Assembly (NCBI RefSeq): GCF_026210795.1
Contig: NC_089436.1
Location: forward strand, 1-64,000
Source: Rhizophagus irregularis
Lineage: Eukaryota
Reading direction: 5' to 3'
Length of the DNA stretch: 64,000 nt
Below, in pieces: positions 275-54,577 of the stretch; the first letter of the stretch is position 1; each line of letters starts with the position of its first letter. The notes beneath the pieces are model-generated. The model ran no database searches. It had not been told where the DNA came from and was given only the letters and a program-made list of their open reading frames with translations. The translations under genes were made by a program, and so were the position numbers.

Positions 275-1370
275 ATTTCCGACATGATTTCTCACATCCC
301 TTTCTCAATAAAAGGACCAATTTGGCACGCTTCCAAAACTTACTGTATGAAAATTATATCAGCCTGGTTTTTTAATAATTCCATTTTTTGTATTTTCGGA
401 CTTGTTTATATAAAGTATTTCCACAGAAGTTTTTTATTACTCATCTGATGTTGTTAGGAAAATCTTGGAATACGCATTTGAAAATGGTACCAAAAGATAA
501 TCATTACTGCTGGATACTATCTGCAACTTGGTACATATAATTTACAGCACTTCTTGCAAGCCACATATTTTATTAAATGAAGACAAATTCCAAATTTCTT
601 TAATGCCATATATGGAAGGTTAGGAAAAATTGGAAAACAAATTTTTGCGTTTATACCCGTAAGCTAACATAACGAAAAAAAATTTTAAGAGAGAATCTGT
701 AAACGTATCGAGCTAACTCCGGATATTTCTTGATATTTCAAAATCCATATAACGGAAACATCCACGTAAAAATTATCATTCAATTCTTCTGGATCTGCAC
801 CAGAATAATTTTCGCTTCTATTTCTATTTCTGGAAAGCATTCGAAATTCACTTCGACAAAGTTTTCACTTTCAAGATTCGATCATTTGAATATCTCTAAA
901 GATTGTCTTCAAACTCGCTCATTATCATTTTCAGGCGTATCGTCACTATCATCATCAGAAAAATAATTCGTTTTACTACTTCTGGATTGGAAAATTTGTG
1001 ATATTCTGTTTCTTCTTTGAAACTACGCACAGCGTTCTTTTTTACCAAAACGAATAACTTTCTTCTTGCGATTCTTCTTGCGATTCTTCTTGTTAAGCGT
1101 TCCTTGTAGATCTTCAACATAGTTTATATTTGCAAAACTTTCCTTAATTAGCTGCGTTATCAAATCAGTAAGGTAGATATCTCCTCGGCAGTCGAATAAT
1201 TCGTATAATTTTGCCTAGCACTTCTAGCGATTTTATAGCTTCTGGGATCTTAATTCTCCTTACAACCCTGGACAATAACTAATGGTGCAAATTTTCAGTT
1301 TCGAGAGGAGATGAAGTATAGGGAGCTTTTCTGAACTCCGTAAACACTTTTAGATTTATTATAAGACATT
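275..1370 (-). pseudogene. N-terminal part of a CMC/CACTA-type transposase, truncated by the telomere
   Basis: Minus-strand fragments in order: Cys pair near the start, acidic tract, WILKYQE...DSLLKFF, KYVACKKCCKLY, FQDFPN, GIIKKP, RKGCEKSCRKW. These resemble the region preceding the DIxDG motif of fungal CACTA-like transposases. Many frameshifts. Confidence 0.6.
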
Positions 1371-1894
1371 TTGTCAATTCTCAATGGCGACGAACGCTTT
1401 ACTGTAAAGATATATTTTTTATTTCACTTGATTGATTAAATTAAAAGTTTATTTTGTTTATTGTAATAATATTATAGTTTAATTAAAGTTTATTTAACTA
1501 AATACATATATGATCAACTTATAATATCCTATTTAATTAAACTCTTTCTTCTTTCGAACATCTCTTAAACAAATCCTTCTCACGCTATTCAACAACAATG
1601 GATAAATTCAAGTAAAAGATTTTTTTTTTTGTTTTATATTTAATTATTCTAAAGCTATTCTCGAATAAGTTCTTCTTATCCTGCATAGAAACTCTTTACA
1701 AGCAAGAAAGGGTAGGATCGAACCCTCACGCCTATTTTCATGAAGATATCTCACATTCTCATCGGAAAGATACTTTGCGTTAAGGAAATGACAAATACTT
1801 CGTTCGTAAAGATGACTCTGCTAAATAAATGAGCAGAGCTTCTGACCCTCAATTACTTTCTATCGCGAAGATACTGCATAAATGTAAATATAAG

Positions 1895-2450
1895 CTTTCG
1901 GACTCCATTATCTCATCGAAGATACTCTGTTAAATGGAAACAGTTGTCGACTCCATTATCTCGTCAAGATACTTGTTAAATGGAAACGAGAAGTCGGACC
2001 ATTATCTCATCGTGGGTAAGATACTTTTAAGAGTAATAGAATGACTATTATTCATCGCATAATTTGTTAAATGGAAAAAGAAGTCGGACTCATTATCTCG
2101 TCGCAAGATACTTTGTTATAATAGAAACAGAAGTCGACTCCATTATCTCCTGTCAAAGATACTTTGTTAAATAGAAATAGCCGGACTCCATTATCTCGGC
2201 ATTCTGGGTAAGATATTTTGTTAAATAAATAGAAGCCTGACTCCATTCTCCCTCGTGGTGCGCATCTTTTAGTACTCTCATCAAAAAGATATTTGTCATT
2301 GCGCAAGCAGAGAAATCAAAGTTTATACTCTTACCAAAAGCACGGTTCGACAGGTAAAAACGAGCCCAACTTCACACTCTCGTCGAGAAGATTTTTCCGT
2401 TAAATATAAATAGAAGTCGCTCCCCATACTCTCCATACTCATCACGCAAG
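1895..2450. repeat. Degenerate subtelomeric tandem repeat, ~45-50 bp unit
   Basis: Recurrent GACTCCATTATCTC...AAGATACTTTGTTAAAT(G/A)GAAA, about 8-10 diverged copies. Confidence 0.8.
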
Positions 2451-2885
2451 ATTCCTCATTAAATATAAGGCTTTGAAAGTAAAGTACAAAGTTAAGCGAA
2501 CAGAGAAGGATCGAAGCGTAAGAAAATAACAGATAAAAAAGAATAGTATCCCGATTACTAATAATTTTATATTAGAAATTACAGAATTACGCTCGGCTTT
2601 CATTATATTTAATAAGAGAGCATAGTAGAAGAAATTGCTAGCGACAAAGAGTTTCTTCATCAGATTGATAATCATCAAACAAGGATACAATATTCTTCGT
2701 CTCCCGATCCATCATCAGCTAGGCACACTAAAGTCCAAAATAATTTGGAATCTATGAATCATAAATACAAGAAGGCTTTCCGAGCTTAGTAATTGCTTAT
2801 ATTATATCTTTCTCGTTTTTCTTTTTCTCATTTTAGTTAGTGTAGAGCTTATATAGATTGCCGATTTATTAATTTATTATGTAAG

Positions 2886-3930
2886 ATGAGGTTGCTCAAA
2901 TATCGAAGCGCTTGTATAATTCTTTTATTCATCGACTATACAAGATATCGGCTTCGATATAGAAAAGAACGTATCTCAAAATACTTTACCGGCTATAAAA
3001 AAAGCATTGGGAGACGTTTTAGAATAAGGATACCGAATTACCGACCAAAGAAAGTTTTACAAAATCTTCATCGACATCGAAGAGATGCATATACTGTTTC
3101 GTTAGATCCTCTAAAATCAAAAGCAAACAAGCAAAGCAACTGTGAATTAACAGTAGGTGAAAGATGTAAAGTATCCGTTTAACATTTTTTGCTGCTTATC
3201 AATTTATGTAACTTTATCCCGAAGATTTTGAAAATATCTTTGCGTAAGATAAGATATAATTGATGTTTTACATTTACTTGAGAAATTCAATGGACGATTA
3301 GATATGAATTTTATTTATTAATTTATACAAATTTATAAATTACATTCGCAATAATAATACTAATATTTTATTTATTTATTTTATTTTATTTATATTAAAA
3401 AAAGAAGGAGGAAAGGCGTCAAAGGATTGCAGTGATATGCAGGATAATACGGATCAATTAAGTTTATAGATCTACCACAACCTCCAAGGAATGGGACGAT
3501 TGGATCAATAACTCCGAACGGCGTTATTGGTAATCCAAACTACCATTCGGATGAAGTGTCCAATCGATTAAGAAAAAGGCCAGTATTACCATTCCAGCTA
3601 AAGCATTAAAGCACTTTCTTTTACTAATTTTTTTTCTTTATCTTTTTCATATAAGATAAGATGAGAAAGATAATAAGATTCTGTCCATCCCGAAAAGAAA
3701 GTTCAAATCACGTTCTCCACGTATAGCGATAAGTGGGGTTGCGATCCCAAGGGGTAATTAAATATGCGAAAGCATGCATGAAGGCATAATATTATTTTAA
3801 TCTAATATATAATATTAAATTTTTATTAGGTTACTCTCCTTCTCCCCGAGACGTGCTGATTTAAGTAGGAGAAACCATTCGTAACATAAAGATGACGAGA
3901 AAAAAGACGGTACAACGACCAAACGTATGT
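2886..3930 (+). pseudogene. Degenerate multi-exon gene, possibly the accessory ORF of the adjacent CACTA-like element
   Basis: Coding-like fragments (LQNLHRHRRDAY...; NPNYHSDEVS...) separated by AT-rich intron-like blocks, divergent from the transposase. Product uncertain. Confidence 0.3.
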
Positions 3931-5656
3931 ATGTAAAATAATCCAGTCTCACCCTCTCTTCAACGCTCCGAAATGGACTATTTCAACTTCTTACCACACT
4001 GAATAATATCATTTTATTCAATTTAATTTTATTGATTTATTTTATTTTACGCCGATTAATATAACACATATTTTTTCTAATAAATTACATTCTATTATTT
4101 GTAACAAAAAATTAGTACGAAACAATTAATAATATATTATTTATTATCGTGCATAATAATTATTTTTAATCAATATATATAATGAATAAATAACAAAAAT
4201 CAAATAAATATCTTAGTAGCTTCGTATAAATATTGGGTAAGCACCCGATTTATCAAAGTATTCGCAAACATATCAGTACTTCTACCGGGAAACCTGATAT
4301 TTCTTGTATACCTATTTCACGCCATAACCCGAAAGTTACATAATTAAACCCGATTTGCGCTAAGTACTCGGTCACAAATCAGGTGAGGATCGGGTCCATT
4401 CGAGCCAACATTTATTTTAATAGGGCTATTACAGGATACGTGAAATATACCTTCGATACCCTTCATTCGACCAGCGAGTGATATATATCGAAAATATGAA
4501 TGAATAAAAAATGTAGCAACTTTCCTGCTCAAAAAAGTAGGTGATAAACATCGAATGAACAAAAAAAAAGGGCGAGGTTATTCATGATATAATTTTGAAT
4601 TTTAGCTATTGTAATTATGATTGTAGTATTTAATTGGAAAATATACATGATCTCAATATCATTGTGTATTGTGGTAAAATGCAGGATCAGTTAAAAATAT
4701 CAGGAGATGGGAAAACTAAAATTATGATTTCAAGATCGAAAATTAAATTTAATTTATATAAATAATTTGTATTTCATTTAATAATAAAAGTGAATACTGA
4801 CACTTTTTTTATATAGAAGATTACTTCAAATCAGTTCCAAATCTTTTATTTTATTGCGTATTTACGATTCAATTTCATAAATTTTATTATACTTTTTTAG
4901 GCCATATAAGGAGTGAAGAAAAATATTAGAAGAAAGGAGTGAGAAGAAATTAATCATGTGAAGTATCATTTTATGTGATACAATGATATGCACCAAACTC
5001 AAAAAGTATAGCCATTATTAGCTACTATTATCGTTCGGCATTAAATTACGTAATGTTAAAGATATTATTGCATCCAAATAACCCAATCAAACCTTTTTAC
5101 TCATATGTGATTGATTACTAAATTTGTGAAAAGACAATGCAACTCCTTAACATATGATTTTTTGGTATATTATTGTACAATTTGAAGAAAGATAAAGACT
5201 CGAGCAGTCTATAGAATATTATGTAAAGCTACAAAATTCAAAAATATTTAGAGTTGGTAACGAATTTACATTTCAATAAAGTACTCATTAAATAGAAATT
5301 TATAAACTTAACTGCTAAAGGAAGAGAATTTTTAAACGATAAATGATGAAACATAGTACAGTTTGATGGTCGAGAATACTCTCAAAATAATTTTCATGAT
5401 AATTGTGAGGTTATAATTAAAATATTCCAATTGAAATAATACAGTGACGATCTGCTTATTTGCTTATTTAATGATTTAGCATATTTTATTATTTTAGTTG
5501 TAGTAAAGTAAATAGTATATAAAATTTTTTCCAAATAATGAAAGATACATCGTTCGGAAAATAAAAAAATTGAATGTTGTACAGCAATATAATATTAAGC
5601 AAAAAATTGAATGTTGTACAGCAATATAATATTAAGCAAAATTAATGTTACAGACA

Positions 5657-6415
5657 TCAATATAACAAAATAGTAATATGATTTGAAAGATTTACAATTT
5701 CATATGAAGGAAAAGGGAGCGTAAACGAGGCGAAATTATTCAATTTCAATGATTTACATAATATGAAGGTGAGCCTCGTAAACGGTAAGTGTGTAGGTGT
5801 GATGAGCTTGACGGGAGAGGCGTAGGTGATGATAACGAAGTGTGAACGGAGAGGTGATATAGGTGGAAGCATATTGGTCGAATCGTAGTGGGTGAGGATG
5901 ACGGGAGTTTTTTGTTTGGCTTGTTGTGTTGTCGATTTCGTGAGCAATATCATAAATTGTTTCTAAATAAATAATCAGATTAATTTATGAATTAAATAAA
6001 AAAAAATAAAATATTTACGTGTTTTCCAATATTTACGTCATTTTTCCCAAAAACGTTCACTGAATTCCTCGTAGTACTTCGTTCCTAGAGCACTTTTCCT
6101 TCCCTTTGGGCTTACCCTCGATATATAATTGCATTTTCTAATAAAATATAAAATTATATTAGTACTATTTAATAATGCTAAAAATAGTAGTTGAACCTGA
6201 AATAATGTTTATATACTTTATGCTCGCACTAAGCCGTTAAATTTTTCTTTTTACATTGCTCCCAGTATACTGCGTGTTCGAACAAGGTTTATTTTGCTTG
6301 CTAGCCCTTTCCAAAAATTATGCTTCATATTACCACTAAGCTTCGTGTAAAAATTATCGTTTTCATTTTTTCTTTCATTAATTAAAACTCGCAATTGTCT
6401 ATCAGTCCACACGTT
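5657..6415 (-). pseudogene. Myb/SANT-like (trihelix) DNA-binding protein with Ser/Arg/Pro-rich tail
   Basis: Manual translation WTDRQLRVLINERKNENDNFY...HNFWKGLASKIN...KFNGL, then exon MQLYIEGKPKGRKSALGTKYYEEFSERFWEK. The Trp spacing is typical of Myb/SANT-like domains. Frameshifted. Confidence 0.6.
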
Positions 6416-13702: not shown

Positions 13703-13811
13703 TATATAAAATAATAAAAATATAACAAATAAAGATTAATCTATAATTAATTCATTAATTGTATTTAATAAAAGCAAATAAGTACAATTTATTATATAAA
13801 TTTTAACTACC

Positions 13812-16156
13812 TTTCAATATAACAATGTATTTGTTTCAATATTTGCTGGTGGACTATTCAAATAATTATCAAGTTCGTCAGATTGTACAAATTTGCGTTT
13901 TTGTATATATGATTTACAAGTACATTAGACGTATTAGGTGGATTGATAGTTATATATTTGAGCTGGCATATAATTTTTTTTCTATAATTCAGTAATTTGT
14001 TTTTTATATATTTCAATATAATCATCAAACCCATTTTCGTGATAATATTCCATTTTATTTTTTGGATCTAAAACTGTTTAAATGATTTAAATATTTAATA
14101 TAATTGTTATTTATTATAATATTATTAATATAAAAAATATTTAAACTCATATATATTATATAATATATACATACTAGTTGAAATTATATATACAAGTCCA
14201 TCAGATGTTGGATAATAGCGTAATAGTTTTTCCTTTGCATTGTTAGCAGCTATAACAACATCTTCTGAAGGTTTTTTTTTGATCAATAAAATCCTCAATT
14301 ATATCAAGTAAATAATTATAGATCGGAATTGTTTGACATAAGGTAAGGTGATTTGCTTCACTCATTGCAAGGGTTGCTGTTTGAAAACACTAACAATAAA
14401 TTTAAATTTTATTAAATATATAATAAATTAATAATATATTAAATCATTAATAAAAAATTAAAAATAATGGAATTATATATATTTACATACTTCCATTAAA
14501 CTTTCAACTTCCTGGATTCTATTCCAGTCTTCATCTGATAATAAATAAATTTTCAATTCATTATCTGCTGATGCCATATAATGTAATGGCTAATAATAAT
14601 AATAAAAAAAAAAAATCACTATTAATTTAAAATGACAAAATCTAAGTAAAATTATTGACTTTACCTCACGTAAATATAATGCCCTATTCATTATCATGTA
14701 AGTAGAATTCCAGCGTGTTCTTATATCGGGTATTAATTCAAGATCTTTGATTTTTAAAACAGTACATTGCATACTGAAACGTTCCCGTCTTTGGGGTGAA
14801 GCTCTAATTTTAGTTACTAAGATTCTTAACTACATTTAATAAAATATAATTGATAAATATTGAAGTATTAATGTAAAATGTATTATATACAAATAATGAA
14901 TTAAATGAAATTATAAACCTTACTTTCGCAATAACTCCAACAGGAACTTTGTTATTTAATACTTCTTCTTCACTATCAGGGCCTGTTCCTTTTAGGGACT
15001 TTAGAGCATCTTGAGCTGCTAAATTAATGATATGTGCAAAGCAGCGTACGCGTTGATGCTCAATATCAAATGTGACATTGTTTTCATTGCACATTTTCTT
15101 AAAATAATCAAAGAACGTATTCATGTTGGATGCATTGTCACTAGTAACACCTAATAGCTATAAAAAATAAAAAATTAATACAATATTATAAGTTTGTTAT
15201 AATATGTTATATGTGAAAATACCAACTTTTGTTAAAAGTTTGTAGTTTTTCAATACTTGAAAGAACGCAATAGCTAAATTTTCCCTGGAATGGGGCCTTT
15301 TAAATGATAAAATTCAAGTGTAATTTTTTTAAGCTTCCAATTTTCACTAATCCAATGAGCTGTAATTCCAAGGAATGGAATCTGGTTTTTTGACGTCCAC
15401 GCGTCAAGAGTAAATGAAATTTGCCCAGGCACATTTTGCAATTCCTCTAGTATAAAAGTTTGCTTATCATTGAATGCTTGGTGAATATCTTTGCATATGG
15501 TAACAGTGGATGGAATAGTGGCTTCACGATTGAGTCTTTTTATCATTAATTTAAAATGATCATCCTCTACAACGGTAAAAGGTTGATCATTTACAACCAC
15601 CCATTTGATTAAATCATTACACCAATTATCTTGTGTAAATTTCTGTAATTAAATACATATATGGTTATTAATTATCTAAAACTAGTAATTAACGAAAAAA
15701 TAATAATAAATTAATAATACGTACTAGTTCATCTGCTTGTTTTACGAACTTATCCATTGCTTCTACTACTACTTTCTTTTCACCAGAAATTAAATTACTA
15801 TGTTTATTTCTAAGATGTTCTATAAGTGTAGAAGTTGAGCCATCTTTCGATGCTTTATAGGTTATACTAAAAAGAATAATCGAAAATAAGCTACTTTTTT
15901 AAATTTAAATTTACAATTATAATTATAAAAATCAAAAACATAAACTTTACCTGCAGTAGATACAAGAATAAGTATTATTTTGTTTATTTAAGGTAAAGTT
16001 CAAATGAGCAACAGATGTTTTTTTTTTATATCTTCCAATTATAATTTTTTGATTCTCATTGCCTAATTCATTATTTACTTGTTTAGGTTCAGTTTCATCA
16101 CCTTCTATATCAAATCCATCTATATCGGTATTAATCACAGGTCGAACAGATGTCAT
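13812..16156 (-). pseudogene. hAT (Ac-type) transposase with BED zinc finger, 3'-truncated
   Basis: YSCIYC...GSTSTLIEHLRNKH (BED finger); DQPFTVVED; ISFTLDAWTS; GVTSDNASNM; RCFAHIINLAAQ; PDIRTRWNSTY; LDPKNK; ELDNYL (start of the dimerization domain). About 9 GT-AG introns. Confidence 0.92.
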
Positions 16157-16339
16157 TGTCACAAAATTTGCCTGGAATTTTTCTGGCAAATTGAGAATTA
16201 TCCCGGTAAATTGGGGTAAATTGGGTTACAATTTTGGGATAATGGAGGACTTACAATTTGGCAAATTTTGTCAAAATGGCAGAATTCCTACAGAATTCCT
16301 AATTCAAATGTTGAGAAATTTTTCAGTAAATTATCATTA

Positions 16340-17230
16340 AATTGTGGGAAATTTTAGGCAAATCTTTAGTAATTTTATGCAAACGAAGTGCAAATTGTGG
16401 TGAATTTAGTTAAATTTTTAGTAATTTTATGCAAATGTAATGTAAATTGTGGTGAATTTTAGGCAAATTTTAGTAATTTTATGCAAACGTAATGCAAAGT
16501 GGTGAATTTGGTTAAATTTTTAGAAATGTTATGTAAACGAAGTGCAAATTGTGGTGAATTTAGTTAAATTTTTAGTAATTTTATGTAAACGAAGTGCAAA
16601 TTGTGGTGAATTTAGTTAAATTTTTAGTAATTTTATGCAAATGTAATGTAAATTGTGGTGAATTTTAGGCAAATTTTTAGTAATTTTATGCAAACGTAAT
16701 GCAAATTGTGGTGAATTTAGTTAAATTTTTAGAAATGTTATGTAAACGAAGTGCAAATTGTGGTGAATTTAGTTAAATTTTTAGTAATTTTATGTAAACG
16801 AAGTGCAAATTGTGGTGAATTTAGTTAAATTTTTAGTAATTTTATGCAAATGTAATGTAAATTGTGGTGAATTTTAGGCAAATTTTTAGTAATTTTATGC
16901 AAACGTAATGCAAATTGTGGTGAATTTAGTTAAATTTTTAGAAATGTTATGTAAACGAAGTGCAAATTGTGGTGAATTTAGTTAAATTTTTAGTAATTTT
17001 ATGTAAACGAAGTGCAAATTGTGGTGAATTTAGTTAAATTTTTAGTAATTTTATGTAAACGTAATGCAAATTGTGGTGAATTTAGTAAATGTAATGCAAA
17101 TTGTGGTGAATTTAGTCAAATTTTTAGTAATGTTATGTAAACGTAATGTAAATTGTGATAAATTATAGTAAATTTTTAGTAATTTTATATAAACGTAATG
17201 CAAATTGTGGTAAATTATAGTGTATTTTTA
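16340..17230. repeat. ~51-bp satellite
   Basis: About 16 copies of TTTTTAGTAATTTTATG(C/T)AAACG(A/T)A(G/A)TGCAAATTGTGGTGAATTTAGTTAAA, with higher-order periodicity. Confidence 0.95.
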
Positions 17231-17679
17231 GTAATGTTATATAAATTGTTGAAAATTTAGGAGGATTTTTCAGCAATGTTGTGCAAACGTAATGCAAATT
17301 GTGAAAAATTGTGGTTAATTTTGCATTTTTTCGGTAAATGTTAGCTAAATTTTTGAATAATTTAGTGAAATTTAGGATAATTTCGGATAATTGAGTGAAA
17401 ATGTTTTACCGATTTTGAACAATTGAGTGTAAACAGTATAAATGCAACATTTTCGGAGACAATTTAGTGAAATTTTGCAATAATTTTGGACAATTAAGTG
17501 AAATTTTGCAATAATTTCGGACAATTGAGTGAAATTTAGTAATAATTTTAAACAATTTAGTGTAAACGTTATAACAATTTAAAACATTGATTTAATAATT
17601 TTACATAATTTATTACAATATTATTTATTAACAAATGCACAATTATTATTTAATAATAAGAATCTATATTAATTTATAT

Positions 17680-20095
17680 TCATCAGATATCCAATAATCC
17701 ATAGGTAATCCGCACCTCTAATTCATTCATGTATCTAATGTCTGATGCCAAGTAGAAGCTGGCGAAAACCTACAAAAAAAGTAAAGAAACGTTAGTTAAC
17801 GTTTCTTAAAAAAAAATTAATAAAAGTTTCACAACCAATGTTGCGAAACTCACCGGTTCGTTTTGAGTTCCATTATCCAAACGTCTGGAACCTACAAAAA
17901 GTAAAAAAGAAACGTTAGGTAATGTTTCTTTTTAAAAAAAAAAGAATAAAAATTAAGTTTCGCAACACAATGTTGCGAAACTTACCGGTTCGTTTCGATT
18001 TCCATTATCCAAACGTCCGGAACCTACAAAAAGTAAAAAAGAAATGTTAGTTATCATTTCTTTTAATAAAAAAAAACAAAAATTAAGTTTCGCAATGTAA
18101 CATTGCGAAACTTACTGGTCGTTTCCATCATTCTAACGTCCGAACCTACAAAAGTAAAAAAGTTAAACGTAATATAAACGTTTCTTTTAATAAAAAAACA
18201 AAATTAAGTTTCGCAATGTAACATTGCGAAACTTACCGGTCGTTTCCATCATTCTAACGTCCGGAACCTACAAAAAGTAAAAAAGAAACGTTAATATAAA
18301 TGTTTCTTTTAAAAAAAAAGAATAAAATTAAGTTTCGCAACACAATGTTGCCAAACTTACCGGTTCGTTTCGATTTCCATTATCCAAACGTCCGGAACCT
18401 ACAAAAATTAAAAGAAAGAAACGTTTAGTATCATTTCTTTAAAAAAAAATAATTAAAAAAATAAGTTTCGCAATACAATATTGCGAAACTCACCGGTTCG
18501 TTTCGATTTCCATTATCCAAACGTCCGGAACCTACAAAAATTAAAAGAAACGTACGTTAATATCGTTTCTTTAAAAAAAAAATTAAAATTAAGTTTCGCA
18601 ACAATTGTTGCGAAACTTACCAGTTCGTTTCGAGTTTCAAACGTCCGGAACCTACAAAAAAAAAGAAAGAAACGTTAGTTAACGTTTCTTTTAATAAAAA
18701 AATTAAAAATTAAGTTTCGCAACGATTCATTGCGAAACTCACCGGTTGTTTTCATCATTCTAACGTCCGGAACCTACAAAAAGTAAAAAAGAAACGTTAT
18801 AAATATAAACGTTTCTTTTTAAAAAAAAAGAATAAAATTAAGTTTCGCAATGTAACATTGCGAAACTTACCGGTCATTTTCATCATTCTAACGTCCGAAC
18901 CTACAAAAGTAAAAAAAGAAACGTTAATATAAACGTTTCTTTTAAAAAAAAAGAATAAAATTAAGTTTCGCAATGTAACATTGCGAAACTTACCAGTCGT
19001 TTCCATCATTCTAACGTCCGGAACCTACAAAAAGTAAAAAAGAAACGTTAATATAAACGTTTCTTTTAAAAAAAAAAAAGAATATAATTAAGTTTCGCAA
19101 CACAATGTTACGAAACTTACCGGTTCGTTTCGATTTCCATTATCCAAACATCTGGAACCTACAAAAAAAAAGAAAGAAACGTTAGTTAACGTTTCTTTTA
19201 ATAAAAAAATTAAAAAATTAAGTTTCGCAACGATTCGTTGTGAAACTCACCGTTCGTTTCATCTAAACGTCCAGAACCTACAAAAGAAGGAAAGAAACGT
19301 TAGTTAACGTTTCTTTTAATAAAAAAAAAATTTAACAAAAAAAAGAAAATATTACCTTTCTTCCAAAGTCCGGGTCGTAATTTCGTCCGGCATTCCTACA
19401 AAAGAAGAAAGGAAACGTTAGAAACGTTTCCTAAAAGAAATTAAAAAAAGTAAGTTTCGAACACGAAACTTACCATTTCACTTTCCGAAGTTGAAGACCT
19501 ACACAAAAGAAAAATAGGAAACGTTAGAAACGTTTCCTTACAAAAAAGAATTAAAAAAATTTTTTTTTAAAAAAGTTTTGAAGCGAACGCTTCGAAACTT
19601 ACCATTTTTCGTTTTCTCGTTTTCTAAGTCAAAAATACCGAAAGACCTAAAAAAAAAATAAAGGATCGTTAAAAACGATCCTTATAAAAGCAAAAAAAAA
19701 AAAAATTTATTTTAAAGTTTCAAGCGAAACGCTTCGAAACTTACCATAATTTCAGTTCGTTTCCCAAAGTCAAAACATCGAAAATCCTACAAAAAAGAAA
19801 GAAAGGAAACGTTAGAAACGTTTCCTTACAACAAAGAATTAAAAAAAAAAATTAAAATTTAAAAAAGTTTTGAAGCGTTTCGCTTTGAAACTTACCATTG
19901 TTTTTCTGAAAGACGGTTCCGGGAAGGGGAAAGGGAATGGGAAAGGAGAACGAAAGAAAAAAGAGGAGAAAACAAAAGAGAAGGGGAGAACGAAAGGGAA
20001 AGGGGGAAATGAAACGAAAAGGGAAGGGGAGAACGAAAGGGAAAGAGGAAGGGAGGAAGGTGAAATGGTGAAAGAAAGGAGAAGTAAAGGCCGTG
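17680..20095 (-). other. Putative multi-micro-exon transcript: 18 exons, 17 double-hairpin spliceosomal introns
   Basis: 17 donors (GTAAGT/GTGAGT, one GTAATA) alternate with 17 pyrimidine-rich TAG acceptors, with a TAAC-type branch motif ~20-25 nt upstream. Introns are about 78-109 nt and internal exons 25-44 nt. The first exon is CT-rich (~19896-20095) and the last exon is unique (from 17769 leftwards). Splicing is predicted, not demonstrated. Confidence 0.75.
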
Positions 20096-20097
20096 AG

Positions 20098-20235
20098 AAA
20101 AAAAAATTAAGCTTTTGCTAAAAAAAGCTTAATTTTTTTTTTTCGTTATACCGCAGCGGTAATTATTAAGTAATATCACGTGACACACGTGATATATAAT
20201 TTTATATAAATAGGGGCTTTCCCCCGCCCCGGAAT
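20098..20235. promoter_or_regulatory. Cluster of short palindromes with two CACGTG boxes, upstream of the micro-exon transcript
   Basis: AAAAAAATTAAGCTTTT..AAAAGCTTAATTTTTTT; TACCGC-A-GCGGTA; ATATCACGTG-ACA-CACGTGATAT; GGGGC..GCCCC. Confidence 0.4.
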
Positions 20236-21691: not shown

Positions 21692-22148
21692 TACTACATT
21701 TGAATTTTGAATGATAGCGCGCCGACACATTGAATATCGCCAAATCAAAAGAACCGGCTGAACCACTTAGTACTAGCCATGAAAATAAATTTATAAATAA
21801 ATTTATTTAAATTATTATATAAAGTGAATCAAGGTTATTAGATGAATTGTTATCGTGTTTGCGAGGATGTAACTCTAAAGTTTTAGTATCGTCAGATGTA
21901 TGCTGTGATATATAATAAATAAATAAAATAAATAAAATAAAATAAATAAATAAGATAAAATAAATATATCAAATAAATAAAATATAACAAATAAAATAAA
22001 TAAAATTAATAAAATAAATAAATCAAATATATCAAATTTATCAGATTTATCAAATAAATCAAGAAAATCGAAAAAATCAAGGGATCTACGAAATGATCTA
22101 CAAAATTGATCTACATAAAATTACTGCGCCACATTTCTATTTTAACAA

Positions 22149-22829
22149 CGTGATAATGGAGAATCAAAAAAATTTCTAAGACAATTACACGTAAAGGTAT
22201 TTTTGCATTTGATAAGCTAAATATATTAAAAAAAAGTTAAAAATTAATAATGATATTATCATTAAAAAATTTAGGTACAAGAAATGGTAAAAACAAGCCA
22301 ATATTGGTTAATTCAACCAATATTAAAGCTGAAAGTTTACAACCAAAAAGAAAAGGACAATTTGCATCAACTAGAAATTCTAAACAATGCAAAATTACTG
22401 AAAATAATACTGAAAATATTGATTTTGATATAGAAAAAGAGAAAAATAGCCCTTAAGAAGCGTGAACTTCCAGATTTGTGTTCGAGAAATTCTGCAGCCA
22501 GAAAGGCACTTGCCAAAGCTGAAGCAATGGAGCTAATTAATTTAGAAAAAAAGAAGTCATTAGGATTACTTTAAAAAATAACATCAAATATAATTTATAT
22601 TAAAGTAATATAAATAAAATTTATAATTTCTTAAAATTTAAATTTTAGTAGTATAGAATAATAATAAAAAAATGAATCATACATACTATGATTTTTTTTT
22701 TATATAGTAATCTAAGTATGTATGTATAAATATGAATCATACATACTACTTTAAAATTATACATACGTAAATCATTCTAACCATACTATACAGAAATTTT
22801 CAATCATACTACATAACTTTCTGAAATAC
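22149..22829 (+). repeat. Direct duplication copy 1 (~670 bp; gene 3' end plus CATACTA-rich tail)
   Basis: Closely similar to 23751-24401 throughout. Confidence 0.9.
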
Positions 22830-23112: not shown

Positions 23113-24149
23113 ATGAGTGAGAAAATAGATCTTTCAGATATAAAAAAACTTGATATTAATTATATTGAGTTAGATCCTGTAAGTAAAATATGTGAGGCTA
23201 ATTTTTTAATTTAATAAATTAATTTTCTTTTGGATTTCTTAAAGGAATATCAAGTTGAAAGTGATAGTAATACTATTGAAAGTGATAAAGATACTGATAT
23301 AAGCGATGAAGAAAAAGACTCAATTGCAATATTTTCAAGAAAGACACATGTACAAGAAATTCATTATGCCACTGTACCAATTGAATATCCAAAAACTTCA
23401 GAATATGGTGTTGCCACAGTATATAATATTACAGGTTCGAAGAATCTAAGAGACTGTTGGAAAAATGTAAGTAATTATCATTTATTAATCTGCAGCTTTA
23501 TTAATTCTATTAAAATTATTAAATACAAATAAATTTTTCTCCAGATTCAATATTCCTTAGGTGGAGGTGGTCAAAGTTCAATTAAGAACTGTCCATTCTT
23601 TGATAATATTAGCATTAAAAAAGAAGAAAGAAACTGCATTTTAATCAATTATTTTCTTTATTTTTTAATATCATTAGAGGACATAAAGTTGATTAAAAAG
23701 CTTTAAAAACAATGGAAACTGAAAATAAATTTGGAGTTCCCTATTCAAGGCGTGATAATGAAGAAGTCAAAAAAATTTCTAAGGCAATTACACGTAAAGG
23801 TATTTTTGCATTTGATAAGCTTAATATATTAAAAAAAAGTTAAAAATTAATAATGGTATTATCATTAATAAATTTAGGTACAAGAAATGGTAAAAATAAG
23901 CAAATTTTGGTTGATTCAACCAATATTAAAGCTGAAAGCTCGCATCAACTAGAAATTCTAAACAATGCAAAATTACTGAAAATAATACTGAAAATATTGA
24001 TTTTGATATAGAAGAGAGAAAAATAGCCCTTAAGGAGCGTGAACTTCAGATTTGTGTTCAAGAGGCTGCAGCCAGAAAGGCACTTGCTGAAGCTGAAGCA
24101 ATGGAGCCAATTAATTTAGAAAAAAAAGAAGTCATTAGGATTACTTTAA
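23113..24149 (+). pseudogene. Internally deleted gene of unknown, probably transposon-borne family
   Basis: N-terminal exons (MSEKIDLSDIKK; PIEYPKTSEYGVATVYN; IQYSLGGG...CPFF) joined at about 23640-23680 to C-terminal exons (NKFGVPYSRRD...; coiled coil REKIALKERE...ARKALAEAE). Confidence 0.45.
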
Positions 24150-24401
24150 ATAATAACATCAAATATAATTTGTATTAAAGTAATATAAATAAAGTTATAA
24201 TTTTTTAAAATTTAAATTTTAGTAGTATAGAATAATAATAAAAAAATGAATTATACATACTATGATTTTTTTTATATAGTAATCTAAGTATGTATGTATA
24301 AATATAAATCATACATACTACTTTAAAATCATACATACATAGATCATTTTAACCATACTATACAAAAATTCTCAATCATACTACATAACTTTCTGAAATA
24401 C
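23751..24401 (+). repeat. Direct duplication copy 2
   Basis: Matches 22149-22829. Confidence 0.9.
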
Positions 24402-36446: not shown

Positions 36447-36588
36447 GGAAAAGGATAAAACTTAAAAACTCTCTCCCGTTCTGCTCACTTGACAATATTT
36501 ACGAAAAAATAAAAAATTTTTTCGGAGTTTTTTATTACTTTTTCTTTATAATTTCTTTATTTTAGATAACTACTACGACACTTTACAA

Positions 36589-38609
36589 ATGGGTAAAGAT
36601 AACAAAAAGAAAAATAACCAGTCTAACAAAGATACTACATCTAAACGTCCTGCCTCTAGCTCTCCAACTGGCAACGTTTCTGGTCAAGGTTCCTCTATGT
36701 CTGGCCCTTCGAACCCTCCACCTTCGACCACCTCTACTAATAAACGTACCAGAGTCAGTGCTGATGACTCTGTCATGGATGTTGATAAACCTCTCACGCC
36801 TCCTGGCCCTGTTGAGACAACTTCCGCTGAGATACCCTCTCAACCCAATACCTCCTCCTCTCGAAGCTTCGCAACACGCCCCTGCTAACAACAACGATAA
36901 AGGCAAAAGCCCTGAAATTACTCCCGCAGTCTCTTTCCCTGAACGTGCTGCCTCTCCGGACGCGTCCCAAGCTGCAGTACAATCTCAACCTACACTTTTC
37001 TACGCCTCGGCCGCTCCTAATGACGTCGATGGCTTTTGGAATCACTTCGCTTCGAACCGCGACGCGTGCGACGCGGTTGATCGACAACTTTCCTTGTTCT
37101 CCTCTTATGGTAGTCGTGCCACGTGTAGTGGATCCAACGATTTGAAGAGGATCATCGTCCACTTCCGAAAAAGGATGATCTTGACACAGCCACAGCTTCC
37201 CCTATGGAATCTTTGTTTGGCTTGCATTTCCATGCATATGATCCCCAGGCTATTAAGGCTGATGAACACGCGCGTACCCTGGTGGTTACCGATATCCCCC
37301 TTTTTCTAACTGACGCTCTTTTGCGTGGTACCTTTTCTCGTTACGGCAATATTACTCGTTGCCATACCCGTTTATCTAAACTTTATCGTACTGCATACAT
37401 TACCTTTGAATCTACTGGTGCTTTACAGAACCTCGACTCTACCTGGGCGTCCTTTGTGGAGGACATTGTTTGCGTATCTGCCCCGCTACTTTCTCACCTG
37501 AACAACGCGCTGAAAGACGCGCTTATGTTGCTTTACTTGCCGGTCTCCCGCGTGGCACTGTAGCGGTCGATCTTGCTGATATCGCCGATGAAATTTCCGC
37601 TAAATCTATCAATGTTCCCTTCTCTATGAATTCTTACAATCCCAAACCTTACGCCTATTGCCACTTTGCCTCTGAAACGGCTATGGAAAATGCTAAATCT
37701 ATTTCATGTGCCCTCAAGAAAGTTGGCCTTACCTGGCATTCTCCGGATGAAGTCACTTCTCTTTGTCATCGATGTGGTCGCCCTAATTGTAACCCTGATC
37801 AATGTGGTTCTTCATCTAGACCTAATCGCCCTTCTCGCCCTTGGCAATCTAATGATAAATTACGTGCTTTATATAATAAGCATCTACCTCCTTCTCATCC
37901 TGCTAAACGACATAACCGTTTTGCCCGCCCTGATAACAATAATGATGGACAAAGCCGTACCAATGCTTCTCGCCATCGTTCTAAATCCAGACCTAATAAC
38001 CGACAACAATCTCGTTCTCGTTCTCGACGTCGACCATGGAATCGTGACAATGTTAATAATAATAATAATAATCAACGTCGTCGTATTCCTGATGCAAATG
38101 AACTTGATCACTATGCTGATGGCATGGATGTTACATACCCTGCTCCTCCTACTGTGCTTACTGATTGGAAATCTATTGGTGCTGCTCTTGAAAAAGTAGT
38201 TGAAGAATTAGCCCTTCTTACCACACAATTTGCTTCCATGAACAGCCGCATTACTAATTTGGAATCTGCTATGGCTGCTCGCACTCCTGTTCCTGGACCT
38301 TTTGTCACTAAACCTCCTTCCTACATCCCTTCCTCTATGCAAGGATGGGATGATACAGTGAATCGAACTGATAATAATATCCTCGTAGATGTTAATTCTC
38401 CCCCTTTGCAATCGACAAGTGGTTTTTCCCCGATTCCTCATTTTGCTCCCATTCCGCCTTCCAACGTCGCTCCTTCCTCCCCTATTGATATGGAACAGCG
38501 TCTCTCCTCTCTTTCCGATACTGTTGCCTCTTTGGCTGGCTCGATTAAAGAAGGAATCCAACAAAACAACCTCATCTTAGCTCGGCAACAAGGCCAAGCT
38601 AATCAATAA
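36589..38609 (+). CDS. LINE ORF1 (gag-like; RRM-like domains, Cys/His knuckle, Arg/Ser/Asn-rich region, coiled coil); about 3 frameshifts
   Basis: Overlapping ORFs 36589-36888, 36758-37309, 37204-37563 and 37470-38609. RTLVVTDIPL...FSRYGNI...AYITF; ALLAGLP...YAYCHF; CHRCGRPNCNPDQC. Confidence 0.85.
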
Positions 38610-38658
38610 TTGTTCTCTTTTTCCCCCTTCTTTATTACCGATTTATCAGTGTGTAATA

Positions 38659-41600
38659 ATGATGGACAACAATAAACATAATTTTTCCCCTCACCCCTCT
38701 CCCCTTATCAAATTTGGTCAATTAAATGTTAATGGTTTATGCTCCCCTGTTCGACAACAACATTTGCTTAATTTTTTTCTTCACTCCTCTTTTGGTGCTT
38801 TATCTATTAATGATACGCGTCTTTCCCCTTCAAATGCTAAATTTATTTTCAAAAATGAACACTCCCAACATCACTTTAAGTCCTATTGGGCTTGTTCATC
38901 TTCTTCTTCTCGTCCTCATGATGGTGTTGGTATTTTGTTACGTAATCCCCTTCATAAACATGTTCAAACAATTGATCCTTGGAACGGTCGACTTCTTAAA
39001 TTAGATTTGTTCTTTCATCAAACTAAAATTTCTATTATTTCTATATATCATCCCCCTTCTGGTTCTGTTCATCAATCTATTTGCAATGATCTTATTGCCA
39101 AACTTCTTTCTTGGCTCGATTATGCCCGAGCTAATAATTATTTTGTAGTTATTCTTGGCGATTTCAATGCTGATGTAATCGCTCATTCTAATTATTCACC
39201 TAATCATTTTAAGCTTCTTCGCTTGCTTTCTTCTCGGTTTTTTACCGATCATCAAGCTCACTCTTCTACACATGGTCCTGATCCCACTTTCTTTCATGAT
39301 AATGGATCTTCTAGACTGGATTATATCTGGTCTTCACCTGGTTTTCCTGCCCCTGGTCTTTTTTCGCAAGTGGTTACTTGCCCGGATCTTTTTGATCGTC
39401 CTTTCACAGATCACAAAGCTCTTTCAACTGTTTTTGACTTTAGTTCTTGCCTGGCTATCTTGGCTAAATCTCGTCTTAAACAAAAAAAAGAATTGCGTAC
39501 TATTTTCTCTTACGCTTCCACTTCAGTTGAACAATGGAATAATTTTACCACTGAAGTTGATGATTCTCTTGGAGTTTATTTAGATAGACAATATCACCCT
39601 AATTTTGATTTCTCCTCTCTTTCTCTTGATCGTATGTGGCATGCATTGAAAGCTGCCATTATTAGTGCTGCAATTGAAACTTTACCCTTTCAAAAAGTCT
39701 CCAATACACACCGACATTCGTACTCTCCTGAATTAACTAAACTTATTGCTATTAACAAGTTTTTAGATCGATTTTTATATCGCCTTACTACTCGTCGTTC
39801 TAATCGGCCTACTCAGACTGCGCAAATGATTGCCGCTTTGCCTTCCCATCTTGAAAATCTTGCATCCTTACTCCCTGATTACTCAGTTCCTACCTATTCT
39901 ACTACCCCTGCTTCTGTATTTAAATCGTTTTTACGATCACAGAAGAATTTAGTTTCTGCCTTTTTATCTACTAAATTCGCCCAACACCTTACGGACTCAG
40001 TGGAATATTATACTGCACTACGTGATGAACACTTTTCGAACTCGCTCGGCACCTTTATCGATTCTGCCTTATCAGTAGAAAAACGTTCAATTGTTCTTGA
40101 CCGTGTCCTGGTCGTTTTGGACTCAACTCCTACTTTATTAACGGATCCTTCGGATATTAAACATGCGGCTGTTTCTCATTTTCAATCAATTGTTTCTCCT
40201 CCGTTGGTCCACTATTCTTCCATCACTTCATTTCCCGCCCGATGGCAACAAGCTTACACTCCTCTTACAAATGTGTCTGCTTCATTATATGATCCTGTTT
40301 TGGCGCCTATTTCCCTACAAGAATGGTCTGCTGTGATTTCCTCCATGCCAAATAACAAAGCTTCCGGCCCTTCAAAAATTTCTTATGAGATGATTAAACA
40401 TCTGTCCGGTGAAGCCTTGGATTTCTCTCTTTTACTGGCCAATACCTGCCTTTCTCGCGGTGATATTCCTGCTGACTGGCGTGAAGCTGTGGTTTATCCT
40501 ATTCCTAAACCTCACGAATTTGATGCTCAACTCAAGAACACTCGACCTATTACTCTTCTGGAAACAGTTCGAAAATGTGTAGTTAAGGTCGTCACGAATC
40601 GTCTCTCCAACATTCTTGCTGATAATAAAGTTCTCCAAGGTGGTAACTTTGCTGGCTTACCTGGTGGTTCTACTGATGTCCCTATCAAAATGCTTGATGC
40701 GATTATCCATCAACATAAACATGACTCTACTGATGATCAGGAACTATGGATCGTTTCTCAAGACATCTCTAAAGCTTTTGATTCTATGGATTTAAATATG
40801 CTTAAATTAGCTTTAGATAGGTTACATATCCCTGCACTTTTAGTGCGATTTATTTTAAATCTTTTTACACGACGAAATAATAAGATAATCACTTGTCATG
40901 GCGACACAGCTGCTTATAGAGTACATGTTGGTATCGATCAAGGAGAAATCATTTCCCCTCTTCTTTGGGTTATTTATTTGGATCCCTTACTTACTGTTTT
41001 GAATCAAGAAGCACGAGATCCTTTTATTTTAAAATCTTCAGCTCTTTTACATTATTCTCCACTTGAATTTGAACAACATTCTTTACCAGTTTCACATTTA
41101 ACGTTTATGGATGATTCTACACTTATTGCCTCTTCCAAATCTGGAATAGTAGACCGTCTTTCTATTACTGCTGAATTTTATACTTTAAATAATGTTCAAG
41201 CTAATTCAGCAAAATATGTTCTTCTTTCATCCTCTTCGCCTTCTTCAAATATTATTTTTGAACTTTTACCTTCTTCTTTAGTTTCCGATACTTCTCTTTC
41301 CCTTTCCTCTTTATCTCTTAATACTTCATTTCGTTTCTTAGGAGTTTGGTTTTCCTTGTCCGCCTCTTCCGCCTTTGTTTTGAAACAAGCGCGCTCCATG
41401 GTTAAAGATATGGCTGCTCTTCTGGGCCCGAAGAAATTATTAGCTCAACATGTGGCCTATCTCTATAATGCTGTCCTTCTTCCGCGATTGGAATTTCGTC
41501 TTCAAACTACCCTTTTCTCTGAAAGTACTATTCAATCAATTGTTAAACCTATGTTTTCAGTACTTCGAAGAAAAGCTGGTCTTGCTACGACTACTCCGTT

Positions 41601-44046: not shown

Positions 44047-44315
44047 CGGACTGGATTTTTGGATGTTGGATAGTTGACTCACACTGGCCTTCGGGTAAAG
44101 TTGGGGTATGCGATTCTGTAATAGTTCAGTTTTTCTTTGCTTTAAATATATTTTAGTTTAGATTTCTTTACTTGTATGAGTCGTGAAGCTACTCTTTTTA
44201 TTTTTTATTAGTTTATTTTCTTATTTTTGTAATATTGTTCGATCACTTTTCGAAGTCCAAAGTATAAATAAAAGATAAAGTCATAAGACTGTTTGCACAG
44301 GAAAAGGATAAAACT

Positions 44316-46399: not shown

Positions 46400-47460
46400 A
46401 TCATCAATAAAAATTCGCGCGAAATTTTCTTAATAGTATTTAATTTTTAAAGCGCAAAATACCGCTTAATTTTAATGTTCAAAGTCCGATCTACTGCTTA
46501 ATTTAAGAAAAATTCGCGAGAATTTTCCTTAATACCGCTTAATTTTAATGTTCAAAGTCCGATCTACTGCTTAATTTAAGAAAAATTCGCGAGAATTTTC
46601 CTTAATGCCGCTTAATTTTAATGTTCAAAGTCCGATCTACTGCTTAATTTAAGAAAAATTCGCGAGTATTTTCCTTAATATCGTTGAATTTTTAGGTCTG
46701 ATTATTTTAAGTTCAAACTATAAGAAATCTGTATATGGAAATGATACATTTTATATATATTTGATATACGTTTTTATAAATTCCGTATTAAATTCCGTAT
46801 ACGGTAAAAAATAAAAATAAAAATAAATTCCGTATACGGTAAACTAAAAATCACGATTTCAAGAAAAATTCTTGCAAATTTTTCTTGATACCGCTTATTT
46901 TAAAGTTTAAATAAATTGAAATCACGATTTTTTAAGAAAAATTCTTGCGAATTTTTCTTGATACTGCTTATTTTTAAAGTTTAAAGACCGATTAGTAAAC
47001 TAAAATCACGATTTTAAGAAAAATTCTTGCGAATTTTTCTTGATACCGCTTATTTTAAAGTTTAAATAAATTGAAATCACAATTTTTTAAGAAAAATTCT
47101 TGCGAATTTTTCTTGATACTGCTTATTTTTAAAGTTTAAATAAATTGAAATCACGATTTTTTAAGAAAAATTCTTGCGAATTTTTCTTGATACTGCTTAT
47201 TTTTAAAGTTTAAAGACCGATTAGTAAACTAAAATCACGATTTTAAGAAAAATTCTTGTGAATTTTTCTTGATACCGCTTATTTTAAAGTTTAAATAAAT
47301 TGAAATCACGATTTTTTAAGAAAAATTCTTGCGAATTTTTCTTGATACTTCTTATTTTAAAGTTTAAAGACCGATTAGTAAATTTAAATTGCGATCACTA
47401 AGAAAAATTCGTGAATTTACTAATCGCGATCACTAAGAAAAATTAGCGAGAATTTCTTAT
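46400..47460. repeat. Tandem arrays built on the palindrome AAGAAAAATTC-N(4-5)-GAATTTTTCTT (probable CACTA subterminal repeats)
   Basis: 78-bp units at 46460-46680 and alternating ~73/82-bp units at 46845-47400. Confidence 0.9.
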
Positions 47461-52346: not shown

Positions 52347-54577
52347 GAGAAATTATACTTTTTTTTTGTTAGTATTAAAATCCAGTTAAAATTTTAATTA
52401 ACTATAAATGTATTAGTTTAAAGATTGGCTATCGTAGTTAGTTAATTATGATATGATAATTACGAAATAGATTGAACGCAAGAATATCACACTTTTCAAT
52501 ATTACACAATTTAAATTATTTATACCGGGTAATCTAAATATGACAAAATTTTTTTAATTAGATAGATGATGGGCTGAGATCCGGATTTCTTAGTTTTAAC
52601 ATTTGAAAAACAATATCTGAAGGTACCATATGTATCATCGAAAAGAAGAAATCTGTAATCTAATAAGGATGTTTAATTAAAATTAAGCCGTGTTTATTAA
52701 AAGCTTTGACCGTTAAAAAGCCTTGATCATTAAAAAGCCTTGATTATTAAAAGCCTTGATCATTAAATTAAATAATTTGATTAAATTTTTTATTATTGTT
52801 AATTAATTAATCCGTTATTATTTTAAAATATTAAAACAAATATTTTTAGTTTACATCCGGATATGTACAGCATAAAATATACAATAAATAATAATAAACA
52901 AATTTTTATAAAATCTAATCAAATGAACTGGTGGCGTCAAAAGATTTGAATTTAATTGATTCATAAAAGATGGCTGAGATCCCGTTCACAACCTCAATCG
53001 TATAATAATAAATCGACCAAATTCTTAACAGTATCACGCTTTGCTATTTATAATAAGTTTAAATCATGAGCTGATGTAAAAAAGGAATGAGGTTAAATAT
53101 CACATGCACTATATTTAGTTTTTTACGGTCTTTAAACTTTAAAAATAAGCGGTATCAAGAAAAATTCGCGAGAATTTTTCTTAAATTCATTACTAATCGG
53201 TCTTTAAACTTTAAAAATAGGCAGTATCAAGAAAAATTCGCGAGAATTTTCCTTGATACTGCTTAATTTTTAAATTAAAACCTTAATTAATACTAAATTA
53301 GCTAAAGCAGTATCACAGAATTATATAAATTTATATAAACCAATCTATCTAATCTCATTAAAGAAGCCCCATGTAAAAAAAAATGTTGATCCGTGTTTTA
53401 TCGTTTCATGTTATCACAGAATTTTTATGGAATTACGGAGGAATAATGGAGAATTGGTTGGCTTTGTGCCACTCTGACATATTAAAAAAAAATACTTGAT
53501 CATCTGTATATTTAAATACCAGTTTTCATCCAGTTTTTCACCCGATTTTAGTCTTACACTATTTTGAAAATAGTGATATAGGGTCAGATCATATTATAAA
53601 TAAATATTTTTTTTCGCTCTTTTTTTTAATTCAAGCAATCATTTAGTATTGAATTCTATTTAATTTTTATTTTATATTAGATCATTATTTCATATATTAT
53701 GTATTTTAAAAAAAAAATTTTTCCATTCATCTAAATCATTATTTAGTTCTTCTTTATCTATTATATAGTAAGTTTAATTAATTTTAATAAATCCTACACA
53801 ATGGTCAATAGCACATACATCAATAAACTCATGAGATTCATTTCCCAAAAATGACAAAAGTCTTATATTATCTTCTTTAACTAATGGATAATTAGATATA
53901 GCCAAAAATACATACATTTTTATCAAACTATTTACAGTACATATTATCAAATAATTAATTCTAGTTCAATCATAATTTCTTCTAATTCATTTTGAAGAGA
54001 ATGACTACATAAAAATTAATAATATCCGTAAATACTAACATTTGATCATAAATATTGTGTTACTGATTTCTTAGATAGCCTATGCTATATTACGCAATTA
54101 ATTTTCCTATATGACTTTATTTGATTTATGTGCTACTGATTTCTTAGATAGGCTATGCTATATTACGCAATTTTACGCAATTTATTTGATTTATGGCTTG
54201 TGATTTTTAAATTTCAGACTGTTTATGGTCGATATTATGCAAATCGTATGACGATTTTAACATGGTGTCCAGTAAATTAACTTTTGTTTTACCTTATTTA
54301 ATATTAAAAATTACTATGTGAATGAGAAATTAATAAAGTAAAACAAATGTAGACTTAAATAACTTAAATATCAATTTATTGGGTAATTTTGGTATTACAA
54401 ACCATTTTTAAGCAATGAAAATTATTAAATATTTAGCATTTAACGTAAGAAATGCAGTAAAAAAATTTTTCCTATTAGAATGGTAGTTTTACAGTCAAAA
54501 ATAAATATCTAAATACCAGAACAAGTAAAAAGCCTCAAGATAAGCTGGTCGATTTCTAATTAAGTATTAAAAATATA

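Follow-up and report, generated by a model that had tools for sequence, protein, structure and literature searches.

The locus and its neighbours

The window (the whole stretch of 64,000 nucleotides analysed) has ~30% GC and begins with a TAACCC telomere; TTAGGG telomeres have been reported for Rhizophagus irregularis (PMC10234402). This and the protein matches given below place the window in a Rhizophagus or a near relative. It contains a LINE-like gene, a tnp2-family transposase fragment, a helicase and a Crinkler-domain gene. The feature under study, an array of intron-shaped units, is located 18-20 kb from the chromosome end, and no introns of its family were found in the 64-kb window outside it. 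Among the other repeats, an apparently intact LINE-like element (36500-44050, plus strand) carries an 1821-codon endonuclease/RT/RNase H frame, and a diverged direct duplication of ~600 nt (22018-22640 and 23700-24350) holds related short ORFs. A dispersed palindromic repeat family (46458-47445, 53156-53300, 56960-57440 and 61681-62288) is also found, 72-82% alike, beside two of the related arrays described below (L004 and L013). CpG richness (observed/expected 1.4-2.5) is common to other satellites as well and is not a specific feature.

Downstream of the array and outside its unit lies a broken BED-finger/hAT-like transposase gene (13800-16225, minus strand), which has ordinary, weak-signal introns and whose ORF found its best named matches in Rhizophagus irregularis, with 84-95% identity. 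The two are separated by an AATAAA and ~1.2 kb of 31-bp and 52-bp satellites (16339-17590), and the 52-bp satellite contained no intron-shaped units. The original prediction for this DNA had considered the array as a spliced 5' leader or decoy of this transposase, which would agree with their common orientation and the distance of ~1.5 kb. However, no long inverted repeat joining array and transposase was present among the 25 longest of 877 pairs, none of 22 loci (flanks of 0.4-3 kb) matched the hAT region, and behind the other arrays lie different neighbours: a TET/JBP gene, an oppositely oriented kinase-like gene, repeats or a second array. The array as internal leader of a hAT element was rejected, as neither common terminal inverted repeats, among those longest pairs, nor a regular linkage to a transposase were found, and we regard a leader or decoy role as hardly credible.

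The array is built from 17 exon-plus-intron modules

On the minus strand, 17 intron-shaped units of 78-109 nt follow one another from 19895 to 17770, the first being 19895-19787 and the last 17853-17770. A first donor pattern found 16 introns and a second parser added intron 5, with donor GTAATA; together they bore out the series of introns and the end coordinates of the original prediction. The 16 internal exons measure 42, 44, 25, 40, 27, 38, 31, 30, 31, 31, 38, 38, 31, 30, 38 and 38 nt, exactly as foreseen. The donor GT(A/G)AGT, expected in every unit, was found in 16 of 17 (GTAAGT in 12, GTGAGT in 4), intron 5 being the exception. A branch motif and a TAG had also been expected throughout; TAG forms the 3' end in 17/17 introns, whereas a YTAAC-type branch motif was detected in only 15/17, with CTAAC in 9/17.

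Upstream of the array is a promoter-like stretch (20173-20230, minus strand) that comprises a GC-rich hairpin at 20213-20230 and, at 20173-20195, a palindrome containing CACGTG twice, and which may act as promoter. The putative first exon (19896-20145, minus strand) includes a palindrome (~20094-20145), a CT-rich tract and an ATG before the first donor. The L007 array is preceded by a similar CT-rich tract. Another tract of the window (59855-60091, plus strand), 70-76% like the first exon, is found directly behind an unrelated ORF, with no array after it.

Introns 1-4 (19895-19787, 19744-19647, 19602-19499 and 19473-19396, minus strand) belong to older, more diverged units that have a close relative in L008. 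Exons 2-4 (42, 44 and 25 nt, within 19396-19895, minus strand) each have a terminal ATG, which confirmed that the first four exons end in ATG directly before the donor. They are followed, on the same strand, by exon 5 (19395-19356), intron 5 (19355-19278), which has no donor hairpin, and exon 6 (19277-19251). In the remaining stretch (17770-19250, minus strand), introns 6-17 have 84-97 nt and exons 7-17 have 30, 31 or 38 nt; it includes young duplicated units such as those of exons 7/13/16 and 8/9/14. Units 6-17 arose recently as copies of each other, and units 1-5 are older. The putative last exon (17609-17769, minus strand) is AT-rich, and public gene models likewise end with it; its two AATAAA, at 17629 and 17614, are at the chance level for such AT-rich DNA.

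A chance control was performed with one stricter filter, which retained 16 units on the array strand and 0 on the opposite strand. The same filter gave a mean of 0.13 and a maximum of 1 unit in 200 dinucleotide shuffles, and 0 units on either strand of the other satellites of the window (8/8). The array is composed of 17 tandemly copied exon-plus-intron modules with near-perfect splice signals. The original prediction had further proposed that GT and AG are kept while the rest of the unit varies. In an alignment within the window array alone this was weak, with GT and AG making up just 4 of 20 invariant columns; it held across arrays, as described below.

The intron type recurs in tandem arrays of other DNA

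We have searched metagenomes with the two-hairpin pattern of the introns, defined without GT or AG, and obtained 21 matching loci. The search for further arrays suggested by the original prediction was fruitful, since 18 of these 21 loci are tandem arrays of the same intron type as the window array. The matches L005, L018 and L019, as well as one in a viral collection and one in a prokaryote genome, were considered chance matches, having no GT in front and no branch hairpin. An exon-motif scan of the metagenome contigs gave 0 matches. The 18 loci represent about eight or nine locus types, several being near copies, and L008 is a close relative of the 5' part of the window array. For the statistics, we have used the window array and 12 arrays from 11 of the 18 loci. 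Near copies, namely L006, L009, L011, L015 and L016, were removed, and L010 and L014 were not included either. The resulting 13 arrays are not independent, as L004 and L013 are relatives and so are the two L021 arms. The gene adjoining the L017 array has named relatives in Glomeromycotina, the best at 57%, from which it is likely that the family spans more than one species.

Compared with the window array, the exons of other arrays scored 0.16-0.35 per base (shuffled 0.16-0.23; L008, 0.61) and the introns 0.35-0.57 (shuffled 0.13-0.20). Within older arrays the exons have drifted to 0.27-0.44 (shuffled 0.19-0.27), with the splice signals intact. Exon lengths are narrowly distributed across arrays (20-45 nt, CV 0.27). 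The 5' flanks had nothing in common and the 3' flanks were common only within subgroups; the presence of AATAAA within 400 nt of most 3' flanks was discarded as evidence, ~1-2 being expected by chance.

Several of these loci have features of their own. An exon of L002 (261-474, minus strand) is 214 nt long, versus 41 nt in its L021 counterpart, and the extra part reads like a decayed fragment of a TPR protein (Pfam TPR_11, E 0.039; RPAP3 TPR, E 0.002), suggestive of a possible capture of a gene fragment into an array exon. In L021, two related arrays (692-3059, plus strand; 4110-5790, minus strand) are placed tail to tail with inverted 3' flanks that are 78-95% alike, and read-through of the two arms would form long double-stranded RNA. 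L011 shows the L021 left arm joined to the flank of the other arm, as from an inversion or an assembly swap. The two tandem arrays of L017 share a 97-nt 3' segment (2510-2430 and 5600-5550, minus strand), which ends in a 9-bp GC-rich hairpin and resembles the end of a rolling-circle element, without CTRR; a TET/JBP dioxygenase gene comes after them. In L010 (500-2107, minus strand), ~1.5 kb of short units with a T-tract and a TAG acceptor, and no donor, come before three complete family introns.

The introns carry two predicted hairpins

The intron elements are ordered as donor, hairpin 1, T-run, hairpin 2, T-tract and TAG. Hairpin 1 (donor hairpin) is predicted to pair intron bases +3 to +8 in 16/17 window introns and in 88/132 introns across arrays; in intron 8 it spans 18962-18992 (minus strand), with pairing from intron base +2 on. 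In hairpin 2 (branch hairpin) the branch motif is placed where the loop passes into the 3' arm, with its first bases in the loop. In intron 8 this hairpin is found at 18914-18943 (minus strand), with the branch A at ~18924 and a 3' arm that reaches over the start of the pyrimidine tract. The branch A is predicted to be paired in 11/16 motif-bearing window introns.

In the hairpin alignment, 91.7% of 396 cells were paired and both sides had changed in 9/24 pairs, a covariation that the relatedness of the sequences may inflate; a pairing as high was reached in 0/500 shuffles, and slid controls gave 39-46%. Folding z values ranged from -2.3 to -13 for the 17 window introns (15 shuffles each), whereas the median stood at -0.2 in the window's 12 putative ordinary introns. 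Parts of L002, L003, L007 and L021 have weak hairpins or none, and L007 retains the branch motif though the branch hairpin is lost. Since palindromes are frequent in other repeats of the window that have no splice signals, the hairpins could stem from template switching at the DNA level.

Splice signals are conserved in position, polarity and strength

A pairwise count of 0/68 changes at GT/AG was discarded as circular, as the units had been parsed by those very bases. Signal conservation was scored from anchors made of the hairpins alone, free of splice signals, in the 13 partly related arrays. GT was found immediately before the donor-hairpin anchor in 60/62 cases, versus 2/62 on the opposite strand. 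From the 62 branch-hairpin anchors, which were oriented by T over A, the first downstream AG occurred at 7-26 nt (5-63 nt on the opposite strand); it was a YAG in 62/62 and was in AG/G context in 55/62. A donor was present upstream of these anchors in 52/62 cases, compared with 21/62 on the opposite strand. At exon positions -2 and -3 no base exceeded 23/62, and conservation falls sharply two bases into the exon. Some array units have lost GT or AG. The original prediction had named conservation of GT, AG and branch motif in homologous arrays beforehand as its test, and these counts came out in its favour.

The introns combine several U2-type features, namely a consensus donor, a branch motif 15-30 nt before a YAG, a pyrimidine tract and a single strand. 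The distance from branch to AG was 17-29 nt in 110/120 introns, and the exon context was G/GT and AG/G. GTAAGT or GTGAGT was present in 99/132 array introns versus 1/12 putative ordinary window introns, YTAAC in 108/132 versus 0/12, and CTAAC in 60/132 versus 0/12, a comparison in which the array parser favours strong signals and the control set of 12 is small and itself predicted. Judged by sequence, the array signals are near the U1/U2 optimum.

The main rival to a functional reading is a selfish or neutral intron-bearing satellite that spreads by tandem duplication and hitch-hikes with mobile DNA, splicing being incidental and the hairpins arising by template switching at palindromic seeds. 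Copy number differs by whole units between the close relatives L004 and L013, as such a satellite would have it, and the tandem and inverted array pairs (L017, L021), the degenerate acceptor-only units of L010 and the repeat-rich, subtelomeric setting are also in line with it. Unclassified repeats are reported to make up ~24% of the R. irregularis genome (PMC8647823), and repeat expansion is known to multiply introns (PMC2395259). Nevertheless, GT was kept in nearly all anchored units though divergence is close to saturation both in the exon bases beside it and over whole exons, and the signals are much stronger than those of neighbouring transposon and host introns. Moreover, the 5' flanks are without likeness and no terminal repeats were found. 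We consider a functionless satellite unlikely.

The exons share no reading frame

The lengths of 104 short exons were distributed as 35/31/38 modulo three, with no phase preference; 3/16 internal exons of the window array and 35/104 across arrays were divisible by three. With all exons joined, the longest frame that starts with ATG has 60 codons and begins at the exon-4 ATG, as in the original prediction. The joined internal exons gave a longest stop-free stretch of 76 codons, and the joined arrays stop-free stretches of just 26-109 codons. No match was obtained in Pfam for the last exon, in a single-ORF protein search or in the ESM Atlas.

A 12-position profile of one exon frame had 4 matches among 1.84 billion proteins. 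With their cluster members, these correspond to 7 R. irregularis gene models labelled "hypothetical" or "unnamed," two of them from DAOM 197198, a strain in which RIR_jg8708 and RIR_jg39712 mark array loci. The public models come from several R. irregularis assemblies and have 68-182 aa. In GET52441.1, ten whole exon types are tiled end to end and exon 3 is skipped; other models reorder the exon types and retain intron ends, and both the last exon and the same exon types are read in differing frames by different models. These models are predictions in which exons are skipped to keep the frame, and the first annotation of the DAOM 197198 assembly is described as based on AUGUSTUS and RNA-seq intron hints (PMC6123716). 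As the public models use the same junctions, an independent predictor agrees with ours on the junctions. The family is multi-copy within R. irregularis, and the models yield no common protein.

Micro-exon genes of Schistosoma have long runs of very short exons, with lengths that are multiples of three, and encode secreted proteins. This type was rejected here, the array exons being not symmetric and having no single open frame. A combinatorial micro-exon gene, in which frame-keeping exon subsets would yield a family of short peptides, was among the original proposals. The four ATG-ending 5' exons could provide starts in different phases, and the existence of public models in several assemblies would agree with this idea. 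Yet the exon lengths ignore phase, the exon types and the last exon are in different frames between models, and the exons are not conserved between arrays; this proposal is disfavoured, and we regard a protein-coding micro-exon gene as improbable. The arrays are likely non-coding. As the exons have no common frame and the introns recur with unrelated exons, the introns, and not the exons, are likely the working part of the family.

In snoRNA host genes such as GAS5/UHG, exons are many, short and frameless, and introns are conserved while exons are not. The array likewise has short, poorly conserved exons without a long frame, and its conserved structured introns with disposable exons would suit an intron-host gene whose product is the excised introns, as stable lariats or small RNAs; the future 2'-5' branch would lie between hairpins, which might impede debranching. 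However, the 28 Rfam matches up to E 5 included none near the gathering score, and a C box was found in 0/132 introns, CTGA in 6/132 and ACA near the end in 3/132. In addition, the stems have 10-15 bp only and the two ends of the intron are not paired with each other. A snoRNA host was rejected, since neither C/D nor H/ACA features were recognised in the array introns and Rfam offered nothing close to its gathering score. Mirtrons, in which the whole short intron is one hairpin joining the 5' and 3' ends, were rejected too, array introns having two local hairpins instead. An intron-host gene has, in our view, very little probability. The original suggestion of a long non-coding RNA whose introns matter is the one favoured by the conservation of introns over exons, the placement of the splice dinucleotides and the random phase; a snoRNA- or microRNA-type product found no support.

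RNA reads and small RNAs

We have aligned, at 88% likeness, three raw-read runs, two of them poly(A), and one contig set. Reads that were 99% alike amounted to 37/756, 31/804 and 43/829 (4-5%), and 79-83% ran on into unlike sequence. The aligned RNA reads come mainly from other loci, and the window locus may be absent or silent in those samples. No joints with intron ends were seen among the 15 listed of 67, and no loose ends at an exon edge among the 24 listed of 532, in reads that derive mostly from other loci. A variant branch hairpin of another array was found in three runs, in 19, 4 and 10 reads, a result compatible with intron retention or with carried-over DNA. Altogether, the RNA reads are slight evidence against a close copy being abundantly and efficiently spliced in those samples. 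The small-RNA tables of PMC6399891, which list only a few hundred small RNAs, contained no motif match in either direction, and the supplements of PMC8647823, with a few hundred small RNAs listed or none, gave no match.

These reads bear on the alternative of a DNA-level hairpin satellite that is merely intron-like and is never spliced. That no splice joint was among the 15 listed, that the RNA reads matched intron-type pieces and not exon joins, and that other hairpin satellites of the window are also CpG-rich would be expected of it. It is opposed by the strict one-strand polarity, the constant branch-to-AG spacing, the exon context of GT and AG, and the retention of the branch motif in L007 where the hairpin is lost. 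A satellite that is never spliced seems very unlikely.

Discussion

The window array and its relatives are likely intron arrays that encode no protein and in which selection acts on recognition by the spliceosome. A more complete reading, which we hold with middling confidence, is that the array is a non-coding RNA gene of a multi-copy family of AM fungi, whose introns are selected for recognition and whose hairpins slow their removal. In the mechanism that we propose, Pol II would transcribe the array from the GC-rich/CT-rich 5' end, and the introns of 80-110 nt would be spliced by intron definition, with U2 entering at the loop of the branch hairpin; the array would grow through unequal exchange or slippage of whole modules. 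These three steps, taken together, seem rather probable. Gating by the hairpins would require U2 to open the branch stem and U1 to displace hairpin 1. Optimal signals hidden in stems suggest a strong but delayed engagement of the spliceosome. The RNA might then serve as a dense, slow-release U1/U2 platform, acting as a sink for splicing factors or as a stalled-spliceosome signal for RNA silencing. This last step, an RNA that is spliced slowly and holds spliceosomes at its 17 sites, is our best guess but a tentative one, with models in the systems discussed below.

The multiplication of introns by repeat expansion (PMC2395259, PMC3443670) and structured mobile introns (PMC8469720) are already known. 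In Cryptococcus neoformans CNN00420, introns were gained by expansion of an intron-containing repeat, a ~107-nt unit that comprises exon ends and a whole intron and whose copy number varies between strains (PMC2395259). The arrays are alike in that the unit holds a whole intron and exon and copy number varies by whole units. In contrast, CNN00420 is described as a single annotated gene with few copies (PMC2395259), whereas the window array has 17 units and, unlike a protein-coding gene, keeps no frame. In addition, predicted hairpins lie over its donors and branch sites, and it belongs to a dispersed family whose exons are unrelated. Fungal introner-like elements and sister stwintrons are similar U2 introns with a predicted stable structure (PMC3443670, PMC8469720), and share with the array introns that they form an intron family with such a structure. 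They are described as inserting seamlessly into unrelated exons and as having end-to-end symmetry (PMC3443670, PMC8469720). The array introns, on the other hand, are tandem in 18/18 family loci, with exons of 20-45 nt rather than single seamless insertions into pre-existing exons, and have two small local hairpins.

Two systems offer models for the holding of spliceosomes. The lncRNA Gomafu/MIAT carries many optimal branch-point motifs and has been proposed to alter the local supply of splicing factors (PMC3116199); the array would resemble it in having many optimal branch motifs in one putative non-coding RNA, a model for the sink. Gomafu has bare repeats in the exon of a vertebrate RNA (PMC3116199), whereas here complete introns are masked by hairpins and SF1/U2 binding is only supposed. 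In Cryptococcus, stalled spliceosomes trigger RNAi (as summarised in PMC6232588), and slow intron removal as a signal in a fungus that has RNAi, as proposed here, would be a likeness. There, a few poorly spliced transposon introns are involved (PMC6232588); the counterpart proposed here is a dedicated array whose signals are strong yet folded, to which the small-RNA tables mentioned above gave no link. In the most specific form of our proposal, AM fungi would have dispersed non-coding genes that serve only for spliceosome loading, with 10-20 optimal introns per RNA and two hairpins gating each. Such genes could be a tunable U1/U2 sink, or a deliberate stall trigger by which captured fragments of genes would be channelled into RNA silencing. 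We regard this form as rather doubtful.

In the literature searched, we came across no mycorrhizal family of dispersed intron arrays that lack a frame and are gated by hairpins, though subscription papers or supplements may describe one; the accessible parts of PMC8647823, PMC7082362 and PMC10639083 do not mention such arrays. If the arrays are spliced, some public Rhizophagus "hypothetical proteins" would be frame-stitched readings of non-coding arrays. Splicing would also make the family a class of RNA genes where nothing but the recognition of the introns is kept by selection. It would then provide a handle on two matters, namely whether introns can function without any exon or snoRNA product, and how the spliceosome is gated by RNA structure at the donor and the branch site. 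If true, the finding would give a name to part of the unclassified repeats of this model symbiont, which are reported as ~24% of its genome (PMC8647823).
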